A stretch of 64,000 bases of DNA from an uncultured Candidatus Babeliaceae bacterium (GTDB taxonomy: Bacteria > Babelota > Babeliae > Babelales > Babelaceae), in the NCBI GenBank assembly GCA_963704655.1, contig OY969927.1:292222-356221 (forward strand), given 5' to 3'. This document shows positions 832 to 37,023 of this stretch, one piece after another (the first letter of the stretch is position 1; each line of letters begins with the position of its first letter). The notes beneath the pieces are model-generated. The model saw only the letters and a program-made list of their open reading frames with translations. It had not been told where the DNA came from and did not search any database. The position numbers were made by a program, and so were the translations under genes.

Positions 832-3800
832 ATGAAGCAATATCTTTATGCAGCAGTCGCTGCAGCCATGTTATGTGTATCTTTACAAGCAGAAATAATC
901 TCATTGGAACAGGCTTATGTGGTTTTACAAGAGCTTGAAATGTTCGCACAAGGCGATCAACTTGATGCATCGAGTGATACTATTATGTTCGCGCTTGATG
1001 AACTTATAGGTTATCTTGAAAGTGATACACAGCTTTCAGCAGATGTTCGTTTGGATATTTCAAAAAAGATTAATCTGCTTGTTAAAAAAATTAATCTGCA
1101 GACACGTGCGCCACGTTTAGATGCACCAGAAATACGTGAAACTACAATACTTAATGAAAATTATTACCCAACGCGCGATCTCTATTTACGCAACTTACTC
1201 ATTACCGGCTCGCTTATTTTAAATGGCCAGCAGATCGGCGGTGGCGGCAGTGTGCCAAGTAATCTCTATGTATTAAAAGCTGGCGACACCATGACGGGCG
1301 ATTTAACCATGGCAGACCAGCATGGCATTGTATTAGAAGATGCTTCTGGCGCCAATGCAATTACCGTGCAAGCCCCAAATACTACCGAAACTTATAGCTT
1401 TACGTTGCCAGATAGTGCTGGCGCTGCAAACCAAGCGCTTACTACAGACGGCTTTGGGAATTTAACGTGGGCATCTGCGATTGCAACAACCTCTGGATTA
1501 CAAAGTATTAATAATCTCACAACACCGCACCAATATCTTCTTACCAGCACGGGGACATCAACTGCATTTCAGTTTATCGAAACAAGTTCTTCGCATATTT
1601 TAAATATTCCATACGTTCAGGATTCTAGCCAAGGGTATGGTCTTCTAGATTCTGCTGATTACAATAATTTTGTTAATGCCGCAAACATGGTTAATGCTGC
1701 AACCAGCGACGACGTTTGTGGCACACTTGTAAAGCGTGATGCTAATTGTAATTTTTCAGCTAATATAATTACGGCAACCGTAACGTATGCTAACTTTGCC
1801 TTAACGTCTTCAAGTGCATTAACGGCAGTAACATCAACAACGGCACAATATGCACAGGTAGCAAACAGCGCCAACTATCTTTGTGGCGTACCTGCATGTA
1901 ATTTAGTAAGTACCTATTCACAAGTTCTTTCCGGGACAAGTTTTGATATTCCATTAACACTCGTCTTGCGTGATAGCACCGGCAGCTTTGCAGCAACAAC
2001 TATTACACTCACCGGTGAATTGTTGTTACAAAATGCAAATGGTAATCTAACAGCGCTTCAAGCAGGTGCGCAAAGTTTTGCTCCAGTGTATACACTGATA
2101 TTGCCAACAACAATTGGTGGTGATAATCAGGTATTAACAACAGACGGTAATAACCCAGCAAATCTTTTTTGGCAGCCTGTTTCTGCAATTGTAACTTCTA
2201 CAATTGAACTTTATGGCGATGTTATGGGGTCATCAACTGCAAATATCGTTAATACTATATGCGGACAAAGTGCATGTTCAATTGTTACCACCGTTACCAC
2301 TGCAACAAGTGACAATATCTGTGGTACTTTGGTAAAACGTGACAGTAACTGTAACTTTTCTGCTAATTTAATTACTGCAACGGTGACAAATGCACTTCTT
2401 TCACAAACAGCATTATATGCAACTAATGCGCTACTTTCGGTAACTTCGCAATATGCGCAAAACGCAGGTTCGACTAACTTTGCTTACACGTCATCGCTTG
2501 CACAATATGCACAGGTAGCAAACAGTGCCAACTATCTTTGTGGTGTGCCTGCATGTAATTTAGTAAATACATATTCACAGGTACTTTCCGGGACAAGTTT
2601 TGATATTCCATTAACACTCGTCTTGCGTGATAGCACCGGCAGCTTTGCAGCAACAACTATTACACTCACCGGTGAATTGTTGTTACAAAATGCAAATGGT
2701 AATCTAACAGCGCTTGAAGCTGGTGCGCAAAGTTTTGCTCCAGTCTATACATTAATATTGCCAACAACAATTGGTGGTGATAATCAGGTATTAACAACAG
2801 ACGGTAATAACCCAGCAAATCTTTTTTGGCAGCCTGTTTCTGCAATTGTAACTTCTACAATTGAACTTTATGGCGATGTTATGGGGTCATCAACTGCAAA
2901 TCATGTTGCATTTGTATGTGGCGTGCCTGCATGTGCACTCGCACAAACGTATTCAACGGTTCTTTCAGCAACTGCATGTGATATTCCACTCACGCTTATA
3001 TTGCGTGACAGCACGGGCAGCTTTGCGGCAACAACTATTACACTCACGGGAAACAGTTTAATAAATTACAGCTCTGTCGGCGGATGCAACACTGGAGCTG
3101 GCTTTGTCTTTGCTCCGACAAAACAAAACACCATTATCGGGCTTGGTGCTGGTAATAATAACGTTCTCACTGGAACATCAAACATTGCAGTTGGATATCA
3201 GGCACTTGCAAAAAATACTTCTGGTTATAATAATGTGGCTCTTGGATTTAAGGCACTTGCAAATGGCAATACGATCAATAACTTTGACAATATCGCCATT
3301 GGCGCCAATACGCTTTCTGGCGCATCTATTTTAGGTGATAACGTTGCAGTTGGAACAAATGCGCTTTCTGCGTCGGGTTATACCGGCGGGCAGCAGATAG
3401 CAATTGGAACGGGTGCGTTACAAGCAAATACCACCGGTACTGGAAACATCGCAATTGGTTATGATGCATTACAAACAAATACAAGTGGGGTAAATAATAT
3501 AGCAATAGGCGCTTATGCACTGAGTAAGTTAAACTATAACCTACCGTTTCTTGGTATACCTAGCGGGGCAAATAATATTGCTATAGGCTCCAATGCATTA
3601 AGTAATATAGCTATAGCTGGTGAAAATGTCGCTATAGGCTCAAATACCTTACAGAATGGATCTTTTTCATACGGAAATGTTGCTATTGGTTATAACGCAT
3701 TTGTTTTTGGCAATTCAGCATTCAATGTGGCTGTTGGTAATTCGAGTATGGTCAGCAATAATACGGGCGCAAGCAACACAGCTGTTGGTTATTATTCACT

Positions 3801-16788: not shown

Positions 16789-16791
16789 TTA

Positions 16792-17304: not shown

Positions 17305-17366
17305 TTTTCATGCTGCGGTATGGTATACTAATTGTAACGTAAAGCTATTTAAAAATTGGATTATCT

Positions 17367-19136: not shown

Positions 19137-19146
19137 GCTGGAGAGC

Positions 19147-19180
19147 GGTGTTACCATGGGCGTGTCTCAGTTCTTCAAGG
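19147..19180. repeat. degenerate hairpin repeat copy between the convergent ligase and hxlA genes
   Basis: GGTGTTACCATGGGCGTGTCTCAG resembles 16442-16466 and 11386-11408. Confidence 0.55.
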
Positions 19181-19211
19181 ATGGATATTTTAGTAGTCGT
19201 GAGTAATTTAG

Positions 19212-19835: not shown

Positions 19836-19919
19836 ATCTTAATAATCCTTTAGTGGTACCTGAAAATGGTCGAATACTTCAAAAAAAGTATAGCAGCAAC
19901 TAGAATAATTATCTATTAT

Positions 19920-20651: not shown

Positions 20652-20795
20652 TGACACTTCCCCCCAGAAATAGACTATTTGCTTTCAGTTTACTTAATTA
20701 CAATGGCAGATTGCAACTTTTAAATAAGATCCCACCCATTTTTATTAATTACCAAATGTTAACTAGACTTAACATATAGTTCAACTAAGTGTTAA

Positions 20796-21090
20796 TTAAC
20801 GTGAGTTCGACTAAAATAAGCCATACTTAAAGCCTCTTATTTCCCGTAGTGTCATGGAGCACTATGTGCTCTACTTTCGGGCAGTGACCCGGAATCTATC
20901 TATTAAAGTAAATTTCGATAATAATATTGATCTATTCGATTTTTTTTTACAAAGTAAGATAGACCCCGACTCCAGCCGTCGCTTATCCAGGCCTTCCTAT
21001 CGAAGTACGGGGGTGACACCTTAATAATTCGTAATTAAACTTTGAAACAACAATATTTTCTGCTATTTTTTATCATCGAACTCATGTTAA
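20796..21090. mobile_element. MITE-like element (287 bp, 20800-21086) flanked by TTAA on both sides, carrying an inner GTGTCA..TGACAC GC-rich repeat (20849-21019)
   Basis: The ends are CGTGAGTTCGAC at left and TCGAACTCATG at right, an imperfect inverted repeat. TTAA lies at 20796-20799 and at 21087-21090. No ORF inside. Same family as 62554-62815 and 8305-8410. Confidence 0.7.
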
Positions 21091-21095
21091 CTTAA

Positions 21096-22550: not shown

Positions 22551-22683
22551 AACACTCTCCTTAATGGCCATATAATATCCTATTTATTCACTCTATTTCT
22601 CTATTTTTTTCAGCTTAAACAAAGCGTAAACGCAGAGTCAACAATTTCAAATATATATTTATAGAAATTCCCCTAATACCTTT

Positions 22684-25600
22684 CTATGCCACCAACTTCT
22701 CTATTTTTGTTTGAAGATCAGCAATTTGCTCCTGCATAGTCGCAATTGTTTCCTTATAACATATTTCTAACGTCTCTAAACGTTTTCTATAGTCAAGTAA
22801 CATTGCACGATCTTTTTGCAGCTCATTAAGCATCATCAAAGGGATATACTGATATTGCACTGTTTGAGGCTGTCCATAAGCATCCTTAATAACAATGCCA
22901 GGATAGATTTCTTCAACCTCTTCAGCAATAAGACCATATTCTAGATGATCTTCATAACCATCCCAAATATAATTAAATGTTACCGGGCGTAGCTTATGCA
23001 GATCTTCTGTAATATTATCCATATCTTGAATATTTTTCTTAACACGTCGCGTTGATGCTGTTGTACCAAGCTTTCCATTAGACCCTATGCTAACTGCTGC
23101 TCCCCCTGTGGTATAGGTCTGTCCAAAGATACCTTGAATATAACAAGCACCCGAGCCCGCACCATACAGAGCTCCTATACGAATCGTATCACTTTCAGCT
23201 GTGGATGTTGTTATTGCACCAGCATATACGTTGGCACCAATATAAATATTACCCGTACCTGTCAATAAATTTGTTCCAGCATTATAACCAATAGCAACAT
23301 TATTTGTGCCAGTAGTTAAAGCAGCAAGTGCATCGGCGCCAATTGCGGTGTTATTGCCCCCATAGGTGATCGTGCCACTCAATTTAGTAAGTGCATAACA
23401 TCCGACAGCAACGTTATTGACACTTGCAGTATTTGCAGCAAGTGTTTGGTGCCCAATAGCAACGTTAGATGTGCCGGTGGTGTTTGCATTTAATGCATAA
23501 TACCCAACAGCGGTATTTTGAATGCCAGTAGTAGCATTTGCTAATGCACCTGAACCAACTGCGGTGAGCTGACTTGCTGTACTATTTGCCAGAGCATTTG
23601 TACCAATTGCTGTATTATCATTGCCACTAATATTAATGGTTAATGCTTCATTTCCAAGCGCCACATTGTTTGACCCAATGGTATTTGCATCTAATACTTG
23701 GTAACCGATACCAACGTTTGCCGTGCCTGTGGTATTAAATTGTAACACGCCGGTTCCAATACCAGTTTGCTGGCCGCCAGTATAGTTTGCGCTTGATAAT
23801 GCGTTATAACCAATAGCAATATTATCACCAAGTATACTTGCTCCGGAAAGTGCAAATGCGCCGATGGCAATATTGTCAAAGTTATTTATAGTTTTAGCAT
23901 TTGCAAGTGCTTGATAACCAATTGCAACGTTTGATGTTCCGGTTGTATTTGCATTAAGCGCATAATACCCCTCAGCATGATTTTGTACACCACTCGTGTT
24001 ATTTTGCAATGCACCAGTACCAATAGCAATCTGCTGACCCTTATTATAGTTTGCGCTTGATAATGCGTTATAACCAATTGCTATATTATCACCAAGCACT
24101 GCAGTTCCGGTTAATGTAAATGCGCCAATGGCAATATTGTCAAAGTTATTAATTGTTCTTGCATTTGCAAGCGCTTGGTAACCAATTGCAATATTTGAAG
24201 TTCCGGTGGTATTTAAGTTTAATGCATTGAAACCAACTGCGGTATTTTGAATGCCAGTAGTAGCATTTGCTAATGCACCTGAACCAACTGCGGTGAGCCG
24301 ACTTGCGGTGCTATTTGCCAGAGCATTTGTACCAATTGCCGTATTATCATTGCCACTAATATTAATGGTTAATGCTTCATTTCCAAGCGCCACATTGTTT
24401 GACCCAATGGTATTTGCATCTAATACTTGGTAACCGATACCAACGTTTGCCGTGCCAGTGGTGTTAAACTGTAACACGCCCGTCCCAATAGCAGTCTGCT
24501 GGCCCTTTGTGTAGTTTGCGCTTGATAATGCGTTATAACCAATTGCGATATTATCACCTAAAATAGATGCCCCAGAAAGCGTATTTGCACCGATAGCAAT
24601 ATTATCAAAGTTATTTGCAGTGTTAGCATTTGCAAGCGCTTGGTAACCAAGTGCGGTGTTATTGAACCCAGTAATATTAGCATTTAATGCATAATAACCA
24701 ACGGCAACATTTTGTGCGCCGGTGGTATTATTGAATAATGCACCAGAACCTATTCCAACCAACGAGCTTGTTTGGTTAGTTGATAAAGCCTGGTTACCAA
24801 CTGCGGTATTGTCTGAACCAACAGCCGCATTGTTAAGTGTTAAATTTCCGATGGCAGTATTATTGTTTGAAAATTGTGATAATGACAGCGCATTGAATCC
24901 AACAGCAGTATTATTAGACCCTGATGTATTTGATTGTAAGGTACTATAACCCACGCCAACGTTTTGAGTGCCTAAGGTATTATATTGTAAAGCTCCAGAC
25001 CCCACAGCAGTAAGGGCATTGCCAACTGAAGCCGTGAGAAGAGCATTATAACCAACTGCAGTGTTATTAAAGCCAATTATGTTACCAGAAAGTGAATAAG
25101 AACCTATAGCTGTATTGCTATTGCCAGTTGTGTTACCAGAAAGTGAATAGTAACCAACAGCTGTGTTGCTTGCGCCCGTATTATTGCTGCCCATACTCGA
25201 ATTACCAACAGCCACATTGAACGCTGAATTGCCAAAAACAAATGCATTATAACCAATAGCAACGTTTCCGTATGAAAAAGATCCATTCTGTAAGGTATTT
25301 GAGCCTATAGCGACATTTTCACCAGCTTGAATTATATTACTTAATGCATTGGAGCCTATAGCAATATTATTTGCCCCGCTAGGTATACCAAGAAACGGTA
25401 GGTTATAGTTTAACTTACTCAGTGCATAAGCGCCTATTGCAATATTATTTACCCCACTTGTATTTGTTTGTAATGCATCATAACCAATTGCGATGTTTCC
25501 AGTACCTGTAGTATTTGCCTGTAACGCGCCCGTTCCAATTGCTATCTGCTGCCCGCCGGTATAACCCGACGCAGAAAGCGCATTTGTTCCAACAGCGATG

Positions 25601-28600
25601 TTATCACCTAAAATAGATGCGCCAGAAAGCGTATTTGCCCCAATTGCAATATTGTCAAAATTATTAATACCTGCAGCATTTGCTAATGCTTGATAGCCTA
25701 ATGCAACGTTTGATGTGCCGGTTGTATTTGAGCCAAGAGCATTATACCCAAGAGCAGTATTTTGAATACCTGTAGTATTCGAACCAAGCGCATAATACCC
25801 AACCGCTGTTAAATTATTTGCACGATTGCTATAAAGACTTTGGTACCCAACTCCAACGTTATTACTTACATTCTTGGCAGCACTAGCGCCATTTCCAAAT
25901 AATGCACTAGTACCAAGAGCAACATTATAAGATCCAGAAGTATTTGTTCCTAGCGAAGAGATACCCATAGCAACGTTATTAACGCCTGTAGTGTTATTAG
26001 TCATGCTACTGAAACCTATTGCAATATTAAAACCTATAGTATCGCTTGGTAATGTAAGCGCCCCGATTGCTATATCTTGACCATTTATTGGCGTGGCATT
26101 CTGCATTGCTAAACTGCCAATAGCAATATTAGCTCCTTGACCATTATCTTTTTGCAATGCACTGTATCCTATAGCAATATCTGAAGCAGCAGCATTTAAT
26201 GGTGTAGCATTTTGCATTGCACCAGAACCAATCGCCACATTTTGACCAATTGCACCATTGAAAGTCGCTAATGCATTATTGCCAAGTGCAACATTATCAC
26301 TAGATGTCATATTAGATTTTGCAGCTTGATATCCTACTGCAGTATTATTTTTTCCCGTTGTATTTGCATTAAGTGCTTGATTACCTAATGCGACATTTAA
26401 TGTGCCGGTGAGGGTATTATTATTTCCTGCATTCAAGCCGATAATGGTATTACCATATGTTGGCGCAAAGACAAAGCCCTGACCAATATTGCAACCGCCG
26501 ACAGAACTGTAATTAATTAAACTATTACCGGTGAGTGTGACTGTTGTTGCTTCAAAGCTGCCGGTGCTATCACGTAAAATGAGTGTTAATGCGGTGTCAC
26601 ATGATGTTGCCGTGTTAATAAGATTTGAGTATGAGCCTATGCCAAGTTGGCCGCTGCTGGTAACAACCACCGGTTCACCCACTTGTAAGTTATTGTAAAT
26701 GCCAGCAACATATGCAGCAGTTTGCGTTCCTTGTGTACCGATATACGTAACGTTACTATCAGTTGAATTACCTTGATTTGCAATATAAATACTATTTGAA
26801 GTGCTTGTTCCTGCGTTTACGCCAGCTTCATAACCAAGTGCAACATTGTAAGTTCCCGTTATTATGTTAGATAAAGTTGCCTCCCCAACAGCTACATTAA
26901 ACCCTGCACTATCTAGTCCTAATGAATTATATCCAATAGCAACGTCATGAGAAGCCTGTGCGCTGTTCATCGCATTAATTCCAAGCGCGGTATTATAATA
27001 ACCAGCTGTTGTTGCGTACATTGCTTGCGAACCAACTGCAGTATTATAATTACCAATCATATTAGCATTGAGTGCCAAAGTGCCAATTGCGGTATTTGAA
27101 CCGCCGGATGTATTTGCTGATAACGCAAAAGCACCAAATGCGCTGTTTCCTAACCCTGAGTTATTGTCTTGTAAAGCAAATGTGCCAACTGCTGTATTAT
27201 CATATCCGGTAGTATTTGCACTTAATGCTTGTGAGCCAACGGCAACGTTGTAGCCAGAGCTATCATGAGCAAGTGCTTGATAGCCAATTGCAACAGAGTT
27301 TCCAAAATATGGATTAGCCGAGGCCATTGCGTTGGTACCGATAGCAACGTTGTTGCTCTTATTAGTATTGGTTGCAAGCGTGCCAAACCCGAGTGCAGTG
27401 TTATTATACCCAGTGATATTGTTTGCAAGCGCTTGATAACCAAGTGCAACATTTGATGTTCCAGTTAAGTTATTACTATTGCCTGCTCCAAGACCAATAA
27501 GGGTATTTTGTTTTGTTGGTGCCCAGACAAAACCAGCGCCTGTATCGCATCCGCCAACAGAGCTATAATTGATTAAGCTGTTGCCCGTGAGTGTGATAGT
27601 GGTTGCTGCAAAGCTGCCCGTGCTGTCGCGCAGCACAAGTGCTAATGCATTGTCACATGATGTTGCGGTGTTAATAAGATTTGAATATGATCCCACACCA
27701 AGTTGTCCGTTGCTGGTAATAACTACCGGTTCACCCACTTGTAAGTTATTGTAAATGCCCGCAACATACGTTTGGGTTTGTCCATTACCAATTTTTATAA
27801 GATTGTTATCTCCTGCAGAGCCAACAACATTTGCTCCTAAGTAGATATTGTTTGATCCTGTAAGGCAATTAAGCCCTGCATAGTAACCTAGGGCAGTATT
27901 AGCATAGCCGCTGTTGTTATAATAGAGTGAATAGTACCCTATCCCGACGTTACTAGTGCCAGTTATGTTAGATTGCAATGCTCTTGAACCAATTGCAACT
28001 TGCTGTTGCCCCTGTGTATTATTAGTGAGGCTATATATACCAATAGCTATATTGTCACCAGAATTACTATTTGCCAGCGTAGATATTCCAATGCCGATGT
28101 TAGAGCTGCCTACAGTATTATTTTGTAATGAATAGTCGCCAATAGCTGTGTTAAATTGCCCAGCGGTATTGTTTGCAAGTGCATAATATCCTGCGGCAAA
28201 GTTATTGGTTCCTGTATTATTTTGTAATGCGTTAGTCCCCAGAGCTATTTGATATGGTCCAGTATTATTTTGTAATGCATTTAAGCCAATGCCGATATTG
28301 TCATGTCCTGAGCTATTAAGCTGTAACGCATTATAACCAATGGCTATATTACTTGTCCCTGTGGCAATTAATTGTAAAGCATTTTGTCCAATAGCGATAT
28401 TTCCGCTACCCGTTAATGTGTTGTTATTACCAGCATTTAATCCAATAATAGTATTATTATGTGTTGGCGCAAAGATAAAGCCTTGGCCAGTATTGCATCC
28501 GCCGAGCGAGCTGTAATTAATTAAGCTCTTTCCCGAAAGCGCAACTGTTGTAGCTTCAAATGTGCCCGTGTTATCACGCAAGACAAGGGTTGATGGAGTG

Positions 28601-31600
28601 TCGCATGCTGTTGCAGCCGTAAGTAAGGTATATGTTGGAAGCGTTGACCAAGAAAGTTGTGCTGGATTATTTCCATCTGTTGTCAATAATTGACCAAAAG
28701 CACCTTGGTTAATAGGCATTTGTAAGGTGTACGTAAACGCATATGTTGCAGATGGTGCAGTAATGCCTGCGTAGTTTGTATTACCACTATCGTAAATATT
28801 AAACTGTTTTGCCAGCACGTTATTAAAAAGGTTATTTGGAGCATACCCAAGGTTTGTGCTATTTATTGTGCCACTTGGCATAATATACCGCACTGAGCTG
28901 TTACCCAGCATGACGCTGTTATCAACGAATGCAGCAGCGCCTGCGCCTATGGCCGTTCTATTTTGCGCTGGTTCACCAACATCTGCGCCAGTACCTAGTG
29001 CCGTGTTGTTACTACCAGAAGTTACCGTTAATAATGCCGAATAGCCCACTGCAGTATTAGAACCCCCAAGTACATTAGCGCTTAATGCCGAATAGCCCTC
29101 TGCGGTGTTATAACTTCCAATTACATTGGCGCTTAATGCGTTGTTGCCAACGGCGGTATTATAATTGCCCGATATATTATTTGTTAAGGCAAAACTTCCT
29201 ATTGCAGTATTAATAATTGGTTCTGGTCGTGGGTCAAAAATTGAATCTCCAAAAAACTGATAAGCAATTGCATTCATCGATGCTTGATACCCAATGGCAA
29301 CATTATATTGCATCGGATAAGTTCCAGCAAAGATGCCACCATTTACCACCAAATCGGTTCCGGTCATCAATGCCGAAGTTCCTATAGCAACATTAGAAAA
29401 ACCTTGTTGCGTTGATGCTAATGCGCCTGTACCAATAGCGATATTATCTGCTGCGCCATTAAAAATATAAGAGTTATTCTCACCCTCTCCACCTATAAGA
29501 CTTTGTCCAGCAAATGCGCCAATGGCGATATTGTCAAAACCTGCGGTGATACTTGCAAGAGCATCAAAACCAAGTGCAACGTTTGATGTGCCCGTTAAGA
29601 TATTATTATTGCCTGCATTCAAACCAATAAGAGTATTTTGATTTGTTGGCGCAAAGACAAAGCCTTGGCCAGTATTGCATCCGCCAATTGTGCTGTAATT
29701 AATTAAACTGTTTCCCGTGAGTGTGATAGTTGTTGCTGCAAAGCTGCCCGTGCTGTCGCGCAGAACCAGCGACAATATATTGTCGCATGATGTTGCGGTG
29801 TTAATAAGATCTGAATATGTCCCCACACCAAGTCGTCCGCTGCTGGTAACAACTACCGGTTCACCAACAAGTAGAGTGTTATAAATGCCCGCAACATATG
29901 CAGCAGTTTGTGTGCCTTGTGTACCGATATACGTGACGTTATTATCTGTTGAATTACCTAAATTTGATATATAAATACTATTAGAAGTATTTGACCCTGC
30001 ATTCTGACCCGCTGCATAGCCAAGTGCCACATTCGAGTTTCCCGATGTTATAAGCTCTATTGCATTAACTCCGACTGCGGTATTATATTGACCTGTAGTT
30101 AAGTCTAGCAATGCGTTCGTTCCAACTGCTGTGTTATAACTTCCTCCAATATTATTATTAAGTGCTGAAGCGCCAATGCCAGTATTTTGTACACCAGTTG
30201 TATTAGTTGTCAGTGCATTAAAACCAAGGGCCGTATTGAAATTACCAGTAGTGTTAGCTTGTAATGCAAACGTACCAACTGCGGCATTATATGGGCTTAA
30301 ATTTGCGCTTAATGCTTGCGAACCAACGGCAACGTTGTAGCCAAAACTATCATGGGCAAGTGCTTGATAGCCAATTGCAACAGAGTTTCCTGAAAGGGGA
30401 TTAGCCGAGGCCATAGCCTGGGTGCCAATAGCAACGTTGTTGCTCTTATTAACATTGGTTGCAAGCGTGCCAAATCCGAGTGCCGTGTTATTGCTGCCAG
30501 ACGTATTGAGTGCCAATGCATTAAACCCAAGCGCAAGATTACCTGTGCCGGTGATATTGATATTATTATTTCCAGCATTTAAACCAATAATGGTATTACC
30601 CTTTGTTGGCGCAAAGACAAAGCCAGCGCCGGTATTGCAACCGCCCACCGTGCTGTAATTAATTAAGCTATTGCCAGTTAACGTTATTGTTGTTGCTGCA
30701 AAGCTGCCCGTGCTGTCGCGCAGCACAAGTGTTGATGCATTATCGCATGATGTTGCAGTGTTAAGTAAATTAAGTTGAGCACTATTAGTTACCGTGGTAA
30801 TCCAGCTTAATTGTGCAGGTGCGCCACCATTTGTGGATAATACTTGGCCATTCGCGCCATGTGATGTTGGTAAAATAAGGCCATATGATGAAGAAAAGCT
30901 TGAGGGCACGGTAAATGTTATGTTACCGGTGCTATTTCCTTGGAATACTAAACCACTTTGTGCACGGATATTAAAGGTATCATTTGATGTTGATGCAAAT
31001 GATGAGCCTTGTGAATCGGCAAAGACAAATGCACCATTGTTTGCAGCATTTGCTTGTTGGCCAAGTGCCACAGAATATTCCCCATTTGCTTGGTTGTTAT
31101 AACCGCCGGGTACTGTTGCATATTGTCCGCCTGCTGCGTTGCCATTACCGCCACCAACTGTTCCAGCATAACCCGCAGAATTATTCTGGCCACCACCAAC
31201 TGTTGCATATGAACTTGATGTGCTATTATTATAGCCACCGGTTATAACCGCGTAATAGCCATTTAGATTATTCGACAAACCCCCGCCGATAATGGACCAA
31301 TTTCCTAGTGAACTTCCTAGAGTATTATTTTGGCCACCAACAACAACAGAATAATCACTATTTGCGGTATTGGTATATCCAGCGCCTACAAATGAGCTGT
31401 TACCAGATGCGGTGTTATAAGTTCCACCGCCAACAACAGCATAATAATTAGATGCGTTATTATAATAGCCCCCTGTTATAACCGAGTAATCACTATTTGC
31501 GGTATTGGTATATCCAGCGCCTACAAATGAACTGTTACCAGATGCGGTGTTATAATTTCCACCGCCAACAACAGCATAATAATTAGATGCTTTATTTTGA

Positions 31601-34600
31601 TAACCACCAACAACTGTGGCGTAATCATCTGTAGCATTGTGGTTTTGGCCACCGCCTATAAATGAGCTGTTTCCTGCAGCCTTATTGTTAAAACCACCAA
31701 CGACAATTCCATAGGTATTTGATGCGGTGTTGGCAGATCCGCCAACAACTGTGGCGAAAGTATTTGAAGCACTATTTCCTTCGCCGCCCACAATAACAGC
31801 TTGGTCGCCTGTTGTATTGGAGTTGCCGATGCCACCGCCAATAAATGAGCTATTACCTGCAGCGTTATTGCCAAAACCACCAACAACAACTCCGTAGGTA
31901 TTAGAAGCAGTGTTGCTTTGGCCACCAAGTATAGCAGCGTTAGTATTTGATGCGTGGTTATACTGTCCACCGCCAACAACAGCATAATTACCAGATGCTG
32001 TATTTTCATAACCGCCAGTTACCGATGAGTAATCACCTGAAGCAGTGTGGTGTTCACCATTACCGACAAATGAGCTATTTCCTGTAGAGTTATTATAACT
32101 GCCACCAACAACAATTCCATAGGAATTTGATGCAGTGTTATTTTGTCCACCAAGTATAGCAGCGTAACTATTTGATGCGGTGTTGCTTTGTCCGCCTGCA
32201 ATAACAGCGTAAGAACCGGATGCAACATCAGACCCGCTTGCATTAATTTGTAAATCAACAGCATATGTTCCGCGTGTGTTACCACTTGCAGATGCTTGTA
32301 ATGCGCGAGAACCTTGCGGAGCTACTGTAAGTGCTGAAATGCTACCACAGATTTGTCCTGCAGGTGAAAGGGTAGGGTCATTTACTGTTAAACATCCATC
32401 TGCTGTTATGTTGTATGCGGCAAAGCTGCCTGTATTGTCCCGTAACACAAGTGTGTTTGGAATATCTGCGCTTGTTGCGGTGTAAATCCAATTTAATTCT
32501 GTTGAATTAGTTACCGTTGTTATCCAGCCAAGCTGTTCTGTTTTTCCTGGTCCTGAAACGACCCCAAGAACTTGATACAATCCAGGGGCAGCGTTAGTTG
32601 GCAATATTAATGTGTACGTATTAGTTAGATTTCCAGCGGTTAATGACACTGAACCAGCGCCTGTTGAGCCTTGGAAAACTTGATATCCTGTTACGGTAAT
32701 ATTTGTTGCCGCAAAGCTTCCCGTACTATCGCGTTCTACTATTGTTCCTTGAATATCAAGTGGTGTTGCATTATAAACACCGTTATAAGCAAACTCAAAG
32801 TTTTGATAGTCAATGCCAGAAATTAAACCAACGCTGGTTGTGCCAATTAAGTTACCTGCGTAGGGAATGTTCAATTCATGTGTTCCAGGTTCAATGTCAT
32901 TCCATACAACAAGTGTTAAATTACCGGTATTTGTAGTTAAAAATTGTTCTGGTGCTGTTAAGCCATTAAGACTTTCAATGCCACCTGTTAATGTTGCAAC
33001 CCAGCTTAATTGCCCAGAGCCGTTATTAAACAATGCTTGATTTGGTCCAGTAGCCTGTGCTGCTGGCAATATTAATGTGTACGTATTAGTTAGATTTCCA
33101 GCGGTTAATGACACTGAACCAGCGCCTGTTGAGCCTTGGAAAACTTGATATCCTGTTACGGTGATATTGGTTGCTGCGAAGCTTCCCGTACTATCGCGTT
33201 CTACTATTGTTCCTTGAATATCAAGTGGTGTTGCATTATAAACACCGTTATAAGCAAACTCAAAGTTTTGATAGTCAATGCCAGAAATTAAACCAACGCT
33301 GGTTGTGCCAATTAAGTTACCTGCGTAGGGAATGTTCAATTCATGTGTTCCAGGCTCAATGTCATTCCATACAACAAGTGTTAAATTACCGGTATTTGTA
33401 GTTAAAAATTGTTCTGGTGCCGTTAAGCCATTAAGACTTTCAATGCCACCTGTTAATGTTGCAACCCAGCTTAATTGCCCAGAGCCGTTATTAAACAATG
33501 CTTGATTTGGTCCAGTAGCCTGTGCTGCTGGCAATATTAATGTGTACGTATTAGTTAGATTTCCAGCGGTTAATGACACTGAACCAGCGCCTGTTGAGCC
33601 TTCGAATACTTGATATCCTGTTACGGTGATATTGGTTGCTGCAAAGCTTCCAGTACTATCGCGTTCTACTATTGTTCCTTGAATATCAAGTGGTGTTGCA
33701 TTATAAACACCATTATAAGCAAACTCAAAGTTTTGATAATCTTCACCGGTGATTAAACCAACATGGTTATTGTCATCAGGTAAATTACCAGCATATGGGA
33801 TATCTAATTGATGTACGCCAGTTACTGCGTTATCAGTCCAACCAAAGAATGTTTCAGCTGTGTAGGTAGTTAAGAATTGATTTACAACAGTTACACTATT
33901 CAAGCTTTCAATTGCTGAACCAATAACAACGGTCTGCCATGAAAGATTACCGAACCCATCATTAATAAGTGTCTGACTTGAGTTACCCTGTGCTTGTGGA
34001 AGAGTTACACCATAACTTGTTGAAACTGTTGCTGGGCCAGTAATAGAGACAGTACCACTGTTATCTTTTGCTTCAAACGCTACCGTTGTTACCGTTACAG
34101 TTGTTGCTGCAAAGCTGCCGGTAGAATCGCGTAATACGAGTGTTAATGGAATATCTGCGCTTGTTGCAGACAGCACGGTTGAATAGGTTTGTGCAAGTGC
34201 GCATGCAGGAATGCCACAGACAAATGCAACGTGTGTTGCAGTTTGCGTGCCGATGACATCACCATATAATTGTCCGGTAAATGAAGTGGTAGTTATTGTC
34301 CCCACGCCAAGTTGCCCAAGTGAAGTTACTACAACAGGTGAACCGGTTACCGGTGTTCCATAAATACCAGCAACATATGCAGAAGTTTGTGTGCCTTGTG
34401 TGCCAATGCGAATGGTATTTTGGTCACCAGGTGCGCCACCACTGCTTATTAAAATATTATTACTTTCATTAGAAGTATAAGGATAACCAGCATTTAAGCC
34501 CAATGCAATATTATTAACACCTGTTAATACATTACCTAATGCAGAGTGACCAAGTGCAAGGTTTTGTCCACCAACATCTTTAGCAAGTGCGCCGTTACCC

Positions 34601-37023
34601 AGGGCTATATCAAAACCATTTGAAGGAGACGCAGATTGCATAGCTTCATAACCGATAGCGATGTTTGATCCCAAACCGTTATCATTTTGAAGCGCGCTAT
34701 TACCAATAGCAATGTCGGTAGTTGGATTTTGTGTCAAGTTTAATGCAGAATACCCAAGTGCGATATTGCCATTACCATGTAAATTTGCCGCCATTGCATT
34801 GTTGCCGATTGCAGTGTTATTTTCACCTGTGGAATTATTTGTTAAAGCAAAACTGCCCACAGCGGTGTTGATGAAAGGGCTAAATCCACCGTGGCCACCG
34901 ATTATACCCGCTTGAGTATTTGCAAGTGTTTGATACCCAACAGCAACATTAAATACAAGTGGCCCATATACACCACCTGCTGCTATATCAACGGCATTGC
35001 TGAGTGCGCCGCTGCCAAGAGCAACATTGCCAAAGCCGTGCGTTGTTGTTGCAAGTGCGTTTACGCCGATGGCAACGTTTTCTGCGCCACCGATGGCTGT
35101 TATTTGGTTGTCTAAATAATTATAATAGGTAAATTGTGCGCCGCCTTGCAGTGTCTGTGCACTGTTGGCACCAATTGCAACGTTATCACATGCAACTGTT
35201 GCGGTCATGAGCGCATTAAAGCCAAGTGCAACATTGCTTGTGCCGGTAAGTGTATTATTATTGCCTGCATTAAGACCAATAATGGTATTTTGATGTGTCG
35301 GTGCAAAGACGAATCCAGAACCAGTGTCGCATCCGCCAACAGAACTATAATTAATTAAGCTGTTACCAGTAAGAGTAATAGTTGTTGCTGCAAAGCTGCC
35401 GGTGCTGTCACGCAAAACAAGTGTGAGTGCAGAATTACAACTTGTGCCAGTAGCAGTAGATGATGTCCCTACGCCAAGTTGCCCAAGTGAAGTTACTACA
35501 ACAGGTGAACCGGTTACCGGTGTTCCATAAATACCAGCAACATATGCAGAAGTTTGTGTGCCTTGTGTGCCAATGCGAATGGTATTTTGGTCACCAGGTG
35601 CGCCACCACTGCTTATTAAAATATTATTACTTTCATTAGAAGTATAAGGATAACCAGCATTTAAGCCCAATGCAATATTATTAACACCTGTTAATACATT
35701 ACCTAATGCAGAGTGACCAAGTGCAAGGTTTTGTCCACCAACATCTTTAGCAAGTGCGCCGTTACCCAGGGCTATATCAAAACCATTTGAAGGAGACGCA
35801 GATTGCATAGCTTCATAACCGATAGCGATGTTTGATCCCAAACCGTTATCATTTTGAAGCGCGCTATTACCAATAGCAATGTCGGTAGTTGGATTTTGTG
35901 TCAAGTTTAATGCAGAATACCCAAGTGCGATATTGCCATTACCATGTAAATTTGCCGCCATTGCATTGTTGCCGATTGCAGTGTTATTTTCACCTGTGGA
36001 ATTATTTGTTAAAGCAAAACTGCCCACAGCGGTGTTGATGAAAGGGCTAAATCCACCGTGGCCACCGATTATACCCGCTTGAGTATTTGCAAGTGTTTGA
36101 TACCCAACAGCAACATTAAATACAAGTGGCCCATATACACCACCTGCTGCTATATCAACGGCATTGCTGAGTGCGCCGCTGCCAAGAGCAACATTGCCAA
36201 AGCCTTGCGTTGTTGTAGCAAGTGCGTTTATGCCGATGGCAACGTTTTCTGCGCCACCGATGGCTGTTATTTGGTTGTCTAAATAATTATAATAGGTAAA
36301 TTGTGCGCCGCCTTGCAGTGTCTGTGCACTGTTGACACCAATTGCAACGTTATCACATGCAACTGTTGCGGTCATAAGCGCATTAAAGCCAAGTGCAACG
36401 TTGCTTGTGCCGGTAAGTGTATTATTATTGCCTGCATTAAGACCAATAATGGTATTTTGATGTGTTGGTGCAAAGACGAATCCAGAACCAGTGTCGCATC
36501 CGCCAACAGAACTATAATTAATTAAGCTGTTACCAGTAAGAGTAATAGTTGTTGCTGCAAAGCTGCCGGTGCTATCGCGCAAAATGAGTGTGAGTGGCTT
36601 GTCGCATGATGTTGCAGTATATATAAAATTGAGTTGGTTAGAATTTGTCAGTGTTGTGAGCCAGGTTAAGGTGCCAGCATTATCTGCTAATCCTAAAACT
36701 TGGCCCTGAAGCCCTTCTGCCGAGGGTAATACTAATTGATATGACGTTGTTGGTGTGCATGCACGTGTTGGGAGCATTTCTTCTGTGCTTAAATAGTAGC
36801 TTGGTGATTCGGATAAGCTGTTACCATTTTCGTCAAGAATATAGAGTGGTATATAGGTATCGGATAGAATCATATTTTTGTTATGCTCAAGATTTTTATT
36901 AATCGGTTCAAGTGCTTGAGCAAGAATGTGCAAATCATTAAAATTTGTTGACTCTGTTTGCAGTAAATTTGGAAAAAGCCCTATAGAAAGGGCATAGATT
37001 AAGTGATTGTACTTCATATACAT
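22684..37023 (-). CDS. giant fibre protein (4779 aa): concatenated fibre modules, YadA-head-like segment, C-terminal Peptidase_S74 chaperone
   Basis: A single 14,340-nt ORF. At least 5 internal necks (..YVAGIY..VVVTS.GQLGVG..) are each followed by a new collar and cap (TSCD..LVLRDSTGSFAATTITLTGNSLINYS..GGC). The central segment GGQSNTASNSYAAILGGQNNTASNSYGIVVGG has Hep_Hag-like repeats. The protein ends ASTRRVKKNIQDM..GLIAEEVEEIYPG..MMLNELQKD. Confidence 0.9.
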   Translation of the reverse strand: MYMKYNHLIYALSIGLFPNLLQTESTNFNDLHILAQALEPINKNLEHNKNMILSDTYIPLYILDENGNSLSESPSYYLSTEEMLPTRACTPTTSYQLVLPSAEGLQGQVLGLADNAGTLTWLTTLTNSNQLNFIYTATSCDKPLTLILRDSTGSFAATTITLTGNSLINYSSVGGCDTGSGFVFAPTHQNTIIGLNAGNNNTLTGTSNVALGFNALMTATVACDNVAIGVNSAQTLQGGAQFTYYNYLDNQITAIGGAENVAIGINALATTTQGFGNVALGSGALSNAVDIAAGGVYGPLVFNVAVGYQTLANTQAGIIGGHGGFSPFINTAVGSFALTNNSTGENNTAIGNNAMAANLHGNGNIALGYSALNLTQNPTTDIAIGNSALQNDNGLGSNIAIGYEAMQSASPSNGFDIALGNGALAKDVGGQNLALGHSALGNVLTGVNNIALGLNAGYPYTSNESNNILISSGGAPGDQNTIRIGTQGTQTSAYVAGIYGTPVTGSPVVVTSLGQLGVGTSSTATGTSCNSALTLVLRDSTGSFAATTITLTGNSLINYSSVGGCDTGSGFVFAPTHQNTIIGLNAGNNNTLTGTSNVALGFNALMTATVACDNVAIGANSAQTLQGGAQFTYYNYLDNQITAIGGAENVAIGVNALATTTHGFGNVALGSGALSNAVDIAAGGVYGPLVFNVAVGYQTLANTQAGIIGGHGGFSPFINTAVGSFALTNNSTGENNTAIGNNAMAANLHGNGNIALGYSALNLTQNPTTDIAIGNSALQNDNGLGSNIAIGYEAMQSASPSNGFDIALGNGALAKDVGGQNLALGHSALGNVLTGVNNIALGLNAGYPYTSNESNNILISSGGAPGDQNTIRIGTQGTQTSAYVAGIYGTPVTGSPVVVTSLGQLGVGTITTTSFTGQLYGDVIGTQTATHVAFVCGIPACALAQTYSTVLSATSADIPLTLVLRDSTGSFAATTVTVTTVAFEAKDNSGTVSITGPATVSTSYGVTLPQAQGNSSQTLINDGFGNLSWQTVVIGSAIESLNSVTVVNQFLTTYTAETFFGWTDNAVTGVHQLDIPYAGNLPDDNNHVGLITGEDYQNFEFAYNGVYNATPLDIQGTIVERDSTGSFAATNITVTGYQVFEGSTGAGSVSLTAGNLTNTYTLILPAAQATGPNQALFNNGSGQLSWVATLTGGIESLNGLTAPEQFLTTNTGNLTLVVWNDIEPGTHELNIPYAGNLIGTTSVGLISGIDYQNFEFAYNGVYNATPLDIQGTIVERDSTGSFAATNITVTGYQVFQGSTGAGSVSLTAGNLTNTYTLILPAAQATGPNQALFNNGSGQLSWVATLTGGIESLNGLTAPEQFLTTNTGNLTLVVWNDIEPGTHELNIPYAGNLIGTTSVGLISGIDYQNFEFAYNGVYNATPLDIQGTIVERDSTGSFAATNITVTGYQVFQGSTGAGSVSLTAGNLTNTYTLILPTNAAPGLYQVLGVVSGPGKTEQLGWITTVTNSTELNWIYTATSADIPNTLVLRDNTGSFAAYNITADGCLTVNDPTLSPAGQICGSISALTVAPQGSRALQASASGNTRGTYAVDLQINASGSDVASGSYAVIAGGQSNTASNSYAAILGGQNNTASNSYGIVVGGSYNNSTGNSSFVGNGEHHTASGDYSSVTGGYENTASGNYAVVGGGQYNHASNTNAAILGGQSNTASNTYGVVVGGFGNNAAGNSSFIGGGIGNSNTTGDQAVIVGGEGNSASNTFATVVGGSANTASNTYGIVVGGFNNKAAGNSSFIGGGQNHNATDDYATVVGGYQNKASNYYAVVGGGNYNTASGNSSFVGAGYTNTANSDYSVITGGYYNNASNYYAVVGGGTYNTASGNSSFVGAGYTNTANSDYSVVVGGQNNTLGSSLGNWSIIGGGLSNNLNGYYAVITGGYNNSTSSSYATVGGGQNNSAGYAGTVGGGNGNAAGGQYATVPGGYNNQANGEYSVALGQQANAANNGAFVFADSQGSSFASTSNDTFNIRAQSGLVFQGNSTGNITFTVPSSFSSSYGLILPTSHGANGQVLSTNGGAPAQLSWITTVTNSAQLNLLNTATSCDNASTLVLRDSTGSFAATTITLTGNSLINYSTVGGCNTGAGFVFAPTKGNTIIGLNAGNNNINITGTGNLALGFNALALNTSGSNNTALGFGTLATNVNKSNNVAIGTQAMASANPLSGNSVAIGYQALAHDSFGYNVAVGSQALSANLSPYNAAVGTFALQANTTGNFNTALGFNALTTNTTGVQNTGIGASALNNNIGGSYNTAVGTNALLDLTTGQYNTAVGVNAIELITSGNSNVALGYAAGQNAGSNTSNSIYISNLGNSTDNNVTYIGTQGTQTAAYVAGIYNTLLVGEPVVVTSSGRLGVGTYSDLINTATSCDNILSLVLRDSTGSFAATTITLTGNSLINYSTIGGCNTGQGFVFAPTNQNTLIGLNAGNNNILTGTSNVALGFDALASITAGFDNIAIGAFAGQSLIGGEGENNSYIFNGAADNIAIGTGALASTQQGFSNVAIGTSALMTGTDLVVNGGIFAGTYPMQYNVAIGYQASMNAIAYQFFGDSIFDPRPEPIINTAIGSFALTNNISGNYNTAVGNNALSANVIGSYNTAEGYSALSANVLGGSNTAVGYSALLTVTSGSNNTALGTGADVGEPAQNRTAIGAGAAAFVDNSVMLGNSSVRYIMPSGTINSTNLGYAPNNLFNNVLAKQFNIYDSGNTNYAGITAPSATYAFTYTLQMPINQGAFGQLLTTDGNNPAQLSWSTLPTYTLLTAATACDTPSTLVLRDNTGTFEATTVALSGKSLINYSSLGGCNTGQGFIFAPTHNNTIIGLNAGNNNTLTGSGNIAIGQNALQLIATGTSNIAIGYNALQLNSSGHDNIGIGLNALQNNTGPYQIALGTNALQNNTGTNNFAAGYYALANNTAGQFNTAIGDYSLQNNTVGSSNIGIGISTLANSNSGDNIAIGIYSLTNNTQGQQQVAIGSRALQSNITGTSNVGIGYYSLYYNNSGYANTALGYYAGLNCLTGSNNIYLGANVVGSAGDNNLIKIGNGQTQTYVAGIYNNLQVGEPVVITSNGQLGVGSYSNLINTATSCDNALALVLRDSTGSFAATTITLTGNSLINYSSVGGCDTGAGFVWAPTKQNTLIGLGAGNSNNLTGTSNVALGYQALANNITGYNNTALGFGTLATNTNKSNNVAIGTNAMASANPYFGNSVAIGYQALAHDSSGYNVAVGSQALSANTTGYDNTAVGTFALQDNNSGLGNSAFGAFALSANTSGGSNTAIGTLALNANMIGNYNTAVGSQAMYATTAGYYNTALGINAMNSAQASHDVAIGYNSLGLDSAGFNVAVGEATLSNIITGTYNVALGYEAGVNAGTSTSNSIYIANQGNSTDSNVTYIGTQGTQTAAYVAGIYNNLQVGEPVVVTSSGQLGIGSYSNLINTATSCDTALTLILRDSTGSFEATTVTLTGNSLINYSSVGGCNIGQGFVFAPTYGNTIIGLNAGNNNTLTGTLNVALGNQALNANTTGKNNTAVGYQAAKSNMTSSDNVALGNNALATFNGAIGQNVAIGSGAMQNATPLNAAASDIAIGYSALQKDNGQGANIAIGSLAMQNATPINGQDIAIGALTLPSDTIGFNIAIGFSSMTNNTTGVNNVAMGISSLGTNTSGSYNVALGTSALFGNGASAAKNVSNNVGVGYQSLYSNRANNLTAVGYYALGSNTTGIQNTALGYNALGSNTTGTSNVALGYQALANAAGINNFDNIAIGANTLSGASILGDNIAVGTNALSASGYTGGQQIAIGTGALQANTTGTGNIAIGYDALQTNTSGVNNIAIGAYALSKLNYNLPFLGIPSGANNIAIGSNALSNIIQAGENVAIGSNTLQNGSFSYGNVAIGYNAFVFGNSAFNVAVGNSSMGSNNTGASNTAVGYYSLSGNTTGNSNTAIGSYSLSGNIIGFNNTAVGYNALLTASVGNALTAVGSGALQYNTLGTQNVGVGYSTLQSNTSGSNNTAVGFNALSLSQFSNNNTAIGNLTLNNAAVGSDNTAVGNQALSTNQTSSLVGIGSGALFNNTTGAQNVAVGYYALNANITGFNNTALGYQALANANTANNFDNIAIGANTLSGASILGDNIAIGYNALSSANYTKGQQTAIGTGVLQFNTTGTANVGIGYQVLDANTIGSNNVALGNEALTINISGNDNTAIGTNALANSTASRLTAVGSGALANATTGIQNTAVGFNALNLNTTGTSNIAIGYQALANARTINNFDNIAIGAFTLTGTAVLGDNIAIGYNALSSANYNKGQQIAIGTGALQNNTSGVQNHAEGYYALNANTTGTSNVAIGYQALANAKTINNFDNIAIGAFALSGASILGDNIAIGYNALSSANYTGGQQTGIGTGVLQFNTTGTANVGIGYQVLDANTIGSNNVALGNEALTINISGNDNTAIGTNALANSTASQLTAVGSGALANATTGIQNTAVGYYALNANTTGTSNVAIGHQTLAANTASVNNVAVGCYALTKLSGTITYGGNNTAIGADALAALTTGTNNVAIGYNAGTNLLTGTGNIYIGANVYAGAITTSTAESDTIRIGALYGAGSGACYIQGIFGQTYTTGGAAVSIGSNGKLGTTASTRRVKKNIQDMDNITEDLHKLRPVTFNYIWDGYEDHLEYGLIAEEVEEIYPGIVIKDAYGQPQTVQYQYIPLMMLNELQKDRAMLLDYRKRLETLEICYKETIATMQEQIADLQTKIEKLVA
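22687..23055 (-). other. Peptidase_S74-like chaperone domain (giant fibre C-terminus)
   Basis: S-T-R-R-V-K places Ser at 0 and Lys at +5. The domain is ~75% identical in protein to the 56469-56813 domain. Confidence 0.8.
23500..24610 (-). repeat. two ~380-bp near-identical copies spaced 729 bp (approx 23500-23880 and 24229-24609)
   Basis: AATGCCAGTAGTAGCATTTGCTAATGCACCTGAACCAACTGCGGTGAG occurs at 23521 and 24250. The protein block GQQT.IGTGVLQFNTTGTANVGIGYQVLDANTIGSNNVALGNEALTINISGNDNTAIGTNALANSTAS occurs twice. Confidence 0.85.
32590..33750 (-). repeat. ~2.5 tandem copies of a 468-bp (156-aa) unit
   Basis: The anchor GCAAAGCTTCC.GTACTATCGCGTTCTAC occurs at ~32703, ~33171 and ~33639. The unit runs DYQNFEFAYNGVYNATPLDIQGTIVERDSTGSFAATNITVTG...SVGLISGI. 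Boundaries are approximate. Confidence 0.85.
34279..36612 (-). repeat. two tandem near-identical copies of a complete 1167-bp (389-aa) fibre module
   Basis: The antisense ORFs 34712-34915 and 35879-36082 translate identically and are offset by exactly 1167 bp. The protein aa ~138-526 repeats as aa ~527-915. Boundaries are approximate. Confidence 0.9.

Follow-up and report, generated by a model that had tools for sequence, protein, structure and literature searches.

Probable interlocus gene conversion between inverted giant fibre genes of a Candidatus Babeliaceae bacterium

Introduction

Segments shared between surface-protein paralogs occur in babA/babB of Helicobacter pylori and in uspA1/uspA2 of Moraxella. 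Cassette-type antigenic variation is exemplified by pilE/pilS of Neisseria, vlsE of Borrelia and msp2 of Anaplasma, and invertible tail-fibre segments by the G segment of phage Mu with Gin and the R64 shufflon with Rci. The badA island of Bartonella henselae comprises a repeat-rich gene for a trimeric autotransporter adhesin, with badA-like paralogs and pseudogenes next to it (PMC8859334). Comparison of long-read genomes of Bartonella showed that the copies have fused and traded homologous domain arrays, a “toolbox” for reshuffling (PMC8859334). Interlocus gene conversion is described in a surface-protein multigene family at antigen loci of Mycobacterium tuberculosis (PMC13061034).

The window described here, a 64-kb stretch of a Candidatus Babeliaceae chromosome, is devoted for about half of its length to giant fibre proteins. 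Dependentiae, to which this bacterium belongs, are uncultured or hard to culture, and their few characterised members live inside protists.

The fibre genes and their products

Three genes of one family were found in the list of open reading frames: fibre gene 1 (832..6720, plus strand, 1962 aa), the giant gene (22684..37023, minus strand, 4779 aa, or 4777 aa as called in the ENA long-read contig) and gene 3 (51207..56816, plus strand, 1869 aa). They are surrounded by housekeeping genes, and none of their neighbours is a phage gene. Each starts with ATG and has a hydrophobic, signal-peptide-like N-terminus and an intact C-terminal domain, the Peptidase_S74 intramolecular-chaperone domain (PF13884), followed by a short coiled-coil-like tail. 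The Pfam matches, at residues 1843–1895 of gene 1 (43.8 bits, E = 3.1e-11), 4657–4711 of the giant gene (40.2 bits) and 1755–1806 of gene 3 (72.6 bits, E = 3.2e-20), all exceed the gathering threshold of 22 bits. The domain cores (6358..6516, plus strand; 22891..23055, minus strand; 56469..56624, plus strand) begin with the Ser...Lys motifs SSRRYK, STRRVK and SSRRFK, correspondingly, so that S-[ST]-R-R-x-K stands at position 1 of the profile, where 33 relatives have the consensus SDxRxK. The S-x-x-x-x-K at the start of this domain is what we take to be the autocleavage site of characterised members such as endosialidase K1F. If it acts as in phage endosialidases and tail fibres, the domain would aid folding of the trimer and then cleave itself off. 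No Pfam family besides PF13884 was found in the three C-termini, and the YadA-type β-barrel membrane anchor of type Vc trimeric autotransporter adhesins is thus not seen in them.

The shafts of all three proteins are built of a 17-residue NxAxG β-roll repeat, with the fuller form NTAxGxxALxxNTTGxx. The YadA-head family Hep_Hag gave no match to the fibre proteins even at E ≤ 1, and a sequence search of the PDB gave none either. The AF2 model of the segment called block 1 below (pLDDT 79.8) is matched best in the PDB by 7o23, the YadA-like head of BpaC (E = 1.4e-4, TM 0.46), followed by the heads of CbpF and BoaA. The predicted fold is thus similar to that of YadA-like heads, a resemblance that does not imply membership of the family. 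The three genes are paralogs that code for secreted, probably trimeric fibre proteins, and these may serve in attachment to a surface or host.

The C-terminal halves of the three genes are collinear, with saturated synonymous sites (dS 1.5–3.9), and are ancient duplicates that differ by insertions and deletions of whole modules. Residues 3460–4779 of the giant protein align in order with residues 701–1960 of gene 1 in segments of 71, 89, 67, 59, 46 and 50% amino acid identity.

A segment shared by gene 1 and the giant gene

Block 1 occupies 3277..4271 of the plus strand in gene 1 (aa 816–1146) and 24668..25665 of the minus strand in the giant gene (aa 3787–4118). Self-BLASTN gave 92.2% nucleotide identity over 1001 columns (E = 0), with 91.6% identity in amino acids, and a MAFFT alignment has 916 of 998 positions identical and a single 3-nt indel. 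The preliminary description, in which the block was placed at 24650–25665 and 3280–4300 with about 92% identity in a 70-nt sample compared by eye, was right about the identity, about the shared peptide that it quoted and, to some 20–30 nt, about the coordinates; its anchor pair was 8 nt off, since position 3545 pairs with 25397 rather than with 25405. The arms are inverted and separated by 20.4 kb (4271–24668), and those of the second block described below by 28.6 kb (26347–54968), in agreement with the estimates of about 21 and 29 kb. Both arms of block 1 are in the same reading frame and at a homologous position in the collinear paralogs.

Block 1 is the only match between different genes that exceeds 85% identity, all others being at 72–84% over 150–560 nt, and the next-best paralogous module for its body reaches only 40–51% amino acid identity within the 64-kb window, to which this comparison applies, the whole contig being 1.3 Mb or longer. 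Its synonymous divergence is low (dS 0.19, dN 0.053) as compared with the collinear segments on either side, which are 50–67% identical with dS of 1.6–3.9, and at both ends the identity collapses within about 60 nt. The combination of low dS between saturated flanks and sharp edges points to a non-reciprocal transfer, that is, gene conversion.

Within the block, the synonymous differences are unevenly spread. A core at 3436..3900 (plus strand, paired with 25506–25042 of the giant gene) has 13 mismatches in 465 nt and dS of 0.047, and differs in this respect from the remainder (Fisher p = 1.6e-6), as is expected from nested events. Identical runs of 108 nt (from position 3502), 65, 65 and 63 nt are the longest in the block. 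RecA-type recombination in E. coli needs roughly 25–30 nt of identity, and runs above this minimum count in favour of homologous recombination. A patch of 73 nt at 3996–4068 is only about 56% identical, and no donor for it was found within the window.

Block 1 was probably copied between the genes fairly recently, and its overall dS indicates that the main event was not very recent. The nearest relatives (L017, L022 and L083) share 76–84% nucleotide identity in housekeeping genes, and their fibre genes are too diverged to hold the block, with at most 46% identity in amino acids or 72–78% in nucleotides over short pieces. No closer allele was found in the genome, metagenome and viral collections.

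An older module shared with gene 3

Block 2 links the giant gene (25479..26347, minus strand, aa 3560–3848) with gene 3 (54968..55830, plus strand, aa 1255–1541) at 79.4% nucleotide identity over 873 columns (E = 1e-172) and 84% amino acid identity, the next-best paralog having 44%. The block, first described as directly adjacent to block 1, is real and overlaps it by 190 nt (25479–25668), because the conserved “head” motif of about 70 aa with which block 1 opens is common to all three genes. Residues 3560–4118 of the giant protein are indeed a mosaic, the first part being nearest to gene 3 and the second to gene 1.

The divergence of block 2 (dS 0.98, dN 0.10, dN/dS about 0.1) contrasts only marginally with that of its flanks (dS 1.5–1.65; pS 0.55 in the block versus 0.65–0.67), and its longest perfect run is 24 nt. 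The dS of about 1.0 is similar to the value for divergence from the closest species sampled (1.1–1.5), which suggests a similar age. Block 2 is a shared module of considerable age, ill suited to recombination at present; it is either the trace of a much older event like that of block 1 or what has been best conserved of the original duplication. Of the two blocks proposed as substrates of gene conversion with an identity above the level of the family, block 1 bears this out, exchange being its best reading, and block 2, at 79% identity and with such short runs, does not.

Tandem repeats within the giant gene

A 1167-bp unit of the giant gene is duplicated in tandem at 34297..36596 (minus strand) with 98.9% identity, dS of 0.029 and a perfectly identical run of 734 nt, which makes it the youngest repeat in the window. 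An array of 2.5 copies of a 465-bp unit lies at 32599..33768 (minus strand), with 97–98% identity and dS of 0.097. Intragenic tandem duplications are a more recent source of change than exchange between the genes.

Assemblies and orientation

In a second long-read assembly (ENA ERZ25039454, contig_14340), which is collinear with window positions 15–61179, all four arms are found at 100% identity. The two assemblies are 99.6–99.7% identical and represent one strain only. Where Illumina-based Logan contigs overlap the window, they match it at 100% identity, and these overlaps stop short of both blocks. Short-read contigs of the same organism break within the fibre genes. The GC-skew of the segment between the arms has the same sign as that of the sequence outside them. 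In five relatives, the housekeeping genes of this segment stand in the same order and orientation relative to one another; the contigs of these relatives stop within or ahead of the fibre genes, so that the chromosomal orientation of the segment is not visible there. In L017, the same segment is bracketed by a convergent pair of Peptidase_S74 genes.

Origin of the mosaic

The genes are best explained, with fairly good confidence, as ancient paralogs between which about 1 kb was copied non-reciprocally, from gene 1 to the giant gene or in the opposite direction, by interlocus gene conversion in the course of slow mosaic evolution. We infer that homologous recombination between the two inverted paralogs would have transferred block 1 one way, and a second, shorter event or renewed conversion would then probably have re-homogenised its 465-nt core. 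The outcome would be a sporadic and slow mosaic evolution of the fibre shafts and not a switch.

An unlikely but credible alternative is that a head-plus-body super-unit of about 1 kb was pasted into a new position by unequal or illegitimate recombination at the head motif, the module being newly created in the recipient with no older homolog overwritten. Block 1 is almost exactly one such unit in the giant gene, running from its head motif at 25665 nearly to the next head at 24615, and the 593 residues that the giant protein has in excess of gene 3 begin right after the shared head, although loss of the unit from gene 3 by head-to-head deletion would give the same pattern. The immediate flanks are indels as well: next to block 1 the giant protein has about 212 additional residues on one side (block 2), and gene 1 about 164 on the other. 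As block 1 is adjoined by module indels and not by alignable DNA, insertion and replacement are inseparable at its borders and the donor is not nameable. The wider flanks of gene 1 and the giant gene are, however, collinear homologs, as conversion requires, and the uneven synonymous divergence suggests repeated exchange, for which both copies must have pre-existed.

It is improbable that the convergent fibre pair around the housekeeping segment of about 14 kb, here and in L017, constitutes a recombination partnership, driven by RecA and independent of a recombinase. If it did, recurrent conversion or occasional inversion across the in-frame inverted modules could exchange the distal, C-terminal fibre parts between the genes and alter the range of protist hosts open to attachment, so that an obligate intracellular bacterium would have a counterpart to the tail-fibre switching of phages.

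That no exchange took place, and that both blocks are duplication remnants slowed by stronger constraint, is very improbable. Such constraint could by itself account for block 2, with its low dN/dS and its near-saturated dS close to that of the flanks. For block 1 the reading is contradicted by the dS contrast, the synonymous divergence being 8 to 20 times below that of the flanks; constraint on the protein leaves synonymous sites free, and the edges are abrupt.

A programmed system for frequent switching of fibre specificity, whether by an invertible segment, a shufflon, cassette conversion or diversity generation, is extremely doubtful. The genes are surface-fibre-like, the arms are inverted and in frame, which means that a crossover in block 1 would yield two intact hybrid genes, and the convergent pair of L017 encloses the same segment. 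Against this, no recombinase or invertase domain (by Pfam and annotation) is present in any open reading frame of the 64-kb window, nor is a reverse transcriptase, and the arms are just 92% and 79% identical. Inversion of the intervening chromosome, raised in the preliminary description, is not seen, given the collinear second assembly with unchanged arms and the constant GC-skew sign; the same collinearity and the lack of a recombinase in the window speak against an invertible segment or shufflon. Cassette-like shuffling, proposed with it, is at odds with three full-length genes in a window without silent or truncated cassettes, and cassette-type antigenic variation is not supported, there being no single expression locus with silent, promoterless partial donors. 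A diversity-generating retroelement is likewise not supported, as the window has no reverse transcriptase and the mismatches of block 1 are spread across all bases with no adenine bias (of 79 mismatches, 22 have A in gene 1 and 20 have A in the giant gene).

An assembly artefact, in which the arms are a chimeric consensus of mis-assembled repeats, is suggested by the breaks of short-read contigs inside the fibre genes and has next to no chance of being correct, since a separate long-read assembly reproduces each arm exactly with its copy-specific differences, the arms are readily distinguished at 79 differences per kb, and the reading frames are intact over 14 kb.

Significance and comparison with known systems

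The fibre shafts appear from modelling to have a fold like that of autotransporter-adhesin heads and are ended by a phage-type folding domain, and their genes change by duplication of modules and exchange between paralogs. This mode of change, together with the adhesin-like architecture, makes them candidate determinants of host attachment and fast-evolving markers. As repeats break short-read assemblies, only long-read metagenomes reveal such genes and the way they vary. The mosaic is generally expected for families of repetitive surface proteins and raises no new mechanistic question; exchange between such fibre genes is an ordinary evolutionary route, and nothing points to programmed switching.

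The locus resembles the cassette and invertible systems in having repeated, partly homologous segments of surface fibres in one genome, some of them inverted. Unlike these systems, it has neither silent partial donors beside a single expression site nor a site-specific recombinase or short recombination sites; its identity is too low, and no isomers are seen in two assemblies.

With phage tail fibres, endosialidases and the “tail fiber domain-containing proteins” of Bacteroidota, the products share the C-terminal PF13884 domain with Ser...Lys. The architecture of repeats plus S74 recurs among viral contigs of IMG/VR, in 130 stretches, and among metagenomic proteins, where thousands have it and are named at the source “tail fiber domain-containing” or “trimeric autotransporter adhesin”. 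Identity to any of these proteins is at most 45%, the genes lie among housekeeping and not phage genes, and the fibre proteins exceed the database relatives (538–982 aa) in length by a factor of 2 to 5.

The likeness to badA lies in a very long, highly repetitive fibre-adhesin gene with paralogs nearby and in a related repeat fold, judged from the YadA-like head match. The Bartonella copies, however, lie side by side and include several pseudogenes, and among eight strains recombinant alleles were seen (PMC8859334), whereas here full-length genes lie 20–29 kb apart, inverted, in one strain, and carry the S74 domain in place of the YadA anchor.

Gene conversion among surface proteins differs in its setting, as the present case concerns Dependentiae, another protein family than in M. 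tuberculosis, H. pylori or Moraxella, and one strain. The pattern is nevertheless alike, with patches of high identity in diverged paralogs at separate loci, as produced by non-reciprocal homologous recombination.

Locus and fibre genes

The 64-kb window, with 40% G+C, comes from the chromosome of an uncultured Dependentiae bacterium. Its SerRS shares 87% identity with that of a MAG labelled 'Candidatus Babeliaceae bacterium', followed among named matches by Dependentiae/Babeliales. Three large ORFs contain a C-terminal Peptidase_S74 ("chaperone of endosialidase") domain that exceeds the Pfam threshold: fibre gene 1 (g1; 832–6720, + strand, 1962 aa), the giant gene (22684–37023, − strand, 4779 aa) and g3 (51207–56816, + strand, 1869 aa). 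Their neighbours are housekeeping genes, encoding SerRS, a HemN-like protein, SecD, an ATP-dependent DNA ligase, a GatA-type amidase, MreC, RecJ, RsmG and two tRNAs. A prophage or tailocin context for the fibre genes was considered and rejected.

The DNA ligase (589 aa, 17367–19136) contains N, adenylation and C domains in an archaeal/eukaryotic Lig1-type layout, and its position is kept in all five Babeliaceae relatives examined. The genes g420, g909, g3 and g4 (47156–62281) are arranged in an operon-like manner, with the GTG start of g4 overlapping the stop of g3 at 56813–56816. Three of these, g420, g909 and g4, lack Peptidase_S74 and have in common a different C-terminal region (29–51% aa identity), and g909 shares NxAxG repeats with the giant gene. 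An antisense ORF of 194 residues (53345–53929, − strand) within the tandem-repeat region of g3 is almost certainly no gene but a consequence of the repeat composition.

Blocks shared between the fibre genes

The two inverted blocks of the preliminary description are borne out by self-BLASTN. Block 1 pairs 3277–4271 of g1 with 25665–24668 of the giant gene (+/−) at 92.2% nucleotide identity over 1 kb, and block 2 pairs 25479–26347 of the giant gene with 55830–54968 of g3 (−/+) at 79.4% over 873 nt. The peptides quoted for them were correct; the anchor was 8 nt off, position 3545 pairing with 25397 instead of 25405, and the blocks, said to be directly adjacent, overlap by 190 nt. The overlap arises because block 1 opens with ~70 residues of a conserved "head" motif, beginning DNIAIGANTLSGASILGDN, whose copies are 69–78% identical in amino acid sequence and occur at nt 25665, 24615, 24150 and 23886 in the giant gene, 3277, 4816 and 5431 in g1, and 52749 and 55644 in g3. 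Another motif, TITLTGNSLINYSSVGGC, recurs as well and marks larger super-modules.

All other inter-gene nucleotide matches in the window are 72–84% identical over 150–560 nt, which makes block 1 a clear outlier; the identity of block 2 is ordinary for the family, yet it is the longest match of its grade. At protein level both blocks are specific. The body of block 1 (aa 71–332) reaches 84–95% identity in the g1/giant comparison, against 40–51% at most for any other module. Outside the overlap, block 2 has 85% identity with g3, its next-best match being no higher than 44%.

In gap-tolerant protein alignments the C-terminal halves of the three genes are collinear paralogs differing by whole-module indels. 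Residues 3460–4779 of the giant protein align in order with 701–1960 of g1 (71, 89, 67, 59, 46 and 50% identity), leaving ~212 residues (block 2) exclusive to the giant gene and ~164 exclusive to g1. Residues 3529–3849 and 4443–4742 of the giant protein align with 1224–1542 and 1543–1840 of g3 (79 and 66% identity), and the 593 residues between these two segments are missing from g3. The position of block 1 is thus homologous within old duplicates, and its extent corresponds to one head-to-head super-unit.

Divergence and probable gene conversion

Nei-Gojobori estimates give dS 0.19 and dN 0.053 for block 1 as a whole and dS of 0.047 for its core (3436–3900), against dS of 1.6–3.9 (50–67% nucleotide identity) in the collinear g1/giant flanks. 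Housekeeping genes of the window compared with the nearest sampled species (L017 and L022) show dS of 1.1–1.5. The edges of block 1 are sharp, identity falling at each end from ~95% to ~50% in the space of 60 nt, and its synonymous differences are unevenly distributed (Fisher p = 1.6e-6).

Low dS confined to a bounded tract, with saturated collinear paralogous sequence around it, is what non-reciprocal interlocus transfer classically leaves behind, and block 1 is, on this sequence pattern, most probably a gene-conversion tract. The transfer would have taken place between g1 and the giant gene, with either one as donor, and the low-divergence core suggests a second event nested in the first. 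Since the immediate flanks of block 1 are indels, both the replacement of an older homolog and the insertion of a module fit. Block 1 contains perfect-identity runs of 108, 65, 65 and 63 nt, which, by the minimum homology requirement known from E. coli, would still allow RecA-type recombination. Arms at 92% identity would be far better substrates in a genome that lacks mismatch repair. Block 2, with dS of about 1.0 and dN of 0.10 between giant/g3 flanks at dS 1.5–1.65, is an old shared module; its longest identical run is 24 nt, and it is thus a poor recombination substrate today.

A 73-nt patch within block 1 (3996–4068 in g1, 24945–24873 in the giant gene) is only ~56% identical, with ~30 mostly non-synonymous differences. 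No alternative donor for it was found within the window; the patch may stem from diversifying selection acting locally, or from conversion by a copy that lies beyond the window.

Inversion, switching and artefact

Of the interpretation put forward earlier, the gene-conversion part is supported for block 1, while inversion of the intervening chromosome and cassette-like shuffling of fibre specificity are unsupported. Inversion is possible in principle, since crossing over within block 1 would keep the reading frame and yield two intact hybrids. Against it, a second long-read assembly (ENA ERZ25039454 contig_14340, 1.3 Mb; 99.6–99.7% identical to the window) is collinear with the window over 15–61179. 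GC skew between the g1 and giant arms is of the same sign as in the DNA outside them. The housekeeping genes of this intervening segment keep their internal order in five relatives, but none of the contigs spans both fibre genes, so they are uninformative on inversion.

Cassette-like shuffling would call for silent cassettes, and all three fibre genes are complete. Recombinase, invertase and reverse-transcriptase domains were found in none of the window ORFs, precomputed Pfam matches included, and a shufflon or invertase system was likewise rejected. A diversity-generating retroelement (DGR) is unlikely on the same domain search and because the mismatches have no adenine bias. The blocks are not assembly artefacts, as each of the four arms is reproduced at 100% in the second assembly and Illumina-derived Logan contigs from other runs, broken inside the repeats, are 100% identical to the window over the stretches they cover.

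Tandem duplications

Length variation at present is likelier to come from tandem duplications inside the genes than from the inverted blocks. The giant gene carries two copies of a 1167-bp unit (34297–36596; 98.9% identical, including a perfect run of 734 nt) and 2.5 copies of a 465-bp unit (32599–33738; 98% identity), and g3 carries 2.5 copies of a 201-bp unit. The stretches with such duplications also include 31334–31671, 23438–24654, 1843–2901 and, in g3, 53406–53917. dS between tandem copies is 0.03–0.37. These very recent duplications are the youngest events in the fibre genes, younger than the inter-gene blocks, and they are likely hotspots for copy-number change.

Relatives

Orthologous loci of relatives were reached via the SerRS and hexulose-phosphate-synthase neighbours. 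The ~14-kb housekeeping block (6844–22571 compared) is syntenic across L017, L018/L019, L022, L083 and L084, but the fibre genes at its ends come and go: those of L017, L022 and L083 are too diverged to inform on donor direction or recurrence across species, and L018 and L084 have no Peptidase_S74 gene at the g1 position. Small cargo genes vary by species (Fic+HTH, patatin-like PLA2_B, a nucleotidyltransferase pair, an acetyltransferase; a TPR protein in the window).

A 561-aa giant-gene query covering both blocks matched only Flavobacterium relatives (34–38%) in a collection of one genome per species that lacks the source species. Block 1 used as query against metagenomes retrieved 60 loci, the best at 44% and none a close allele. 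In the protein database, the matches listed for the 561-aa query were all shorter than 1000 aa (33–51% identity); the giant protein itself was not among them, so this search may miss long proteins and says nothing on close relatives among these. A literature search on Dependentiae with endosialidase, tail fibre or adhesin returned no relevant paper.

Protein architecture and known parallels

The repeats have a 17-residue period with the consensus NTAxGxxALxxNTTGxx, and S-[ST]-R-R-x-K opens each Peptidase_S74 domain. The AlphaFold2 model of block 1 (pLDDT 79.8, pTM 0.79) predicts a β-solenoid in which each repeat would form one strand. The top-ranked PDB structure for this model is the YadA-like head of BpaC, a trimeric autotransporter (7o23, E 1.4e-4, TM 0.46), followed by the heads of CbpF and BoaA; PDB sequence searches with the 561-aa query and with the C-terminus gave nothing meaningful. 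Pfam searches found no Hep_Hag match in the repeat region (E ≤ 1) and no YadA anchor in the three proteins, which argues that they are not autotransporters. The combination of repeats and Peptidase_S74 is common in metagenomic Bacteroidota proteins and IMG/VR viral contigs, with identity to all of them ≤51%.

Among documented cases, the nearest is the badA island of Bartonella henselae (PMC8859334), in which long-read genomes reveal that arrays of domains have been reshuffled between a giant repetitive adhesin gene and the badA-like copies next to it. Gene conversion between loci is a familiar process in bacterial antigen families, PMC13061034 being one example. The fibre genes described here extend this known principle to another taxon and another protein family, both of them new to it.
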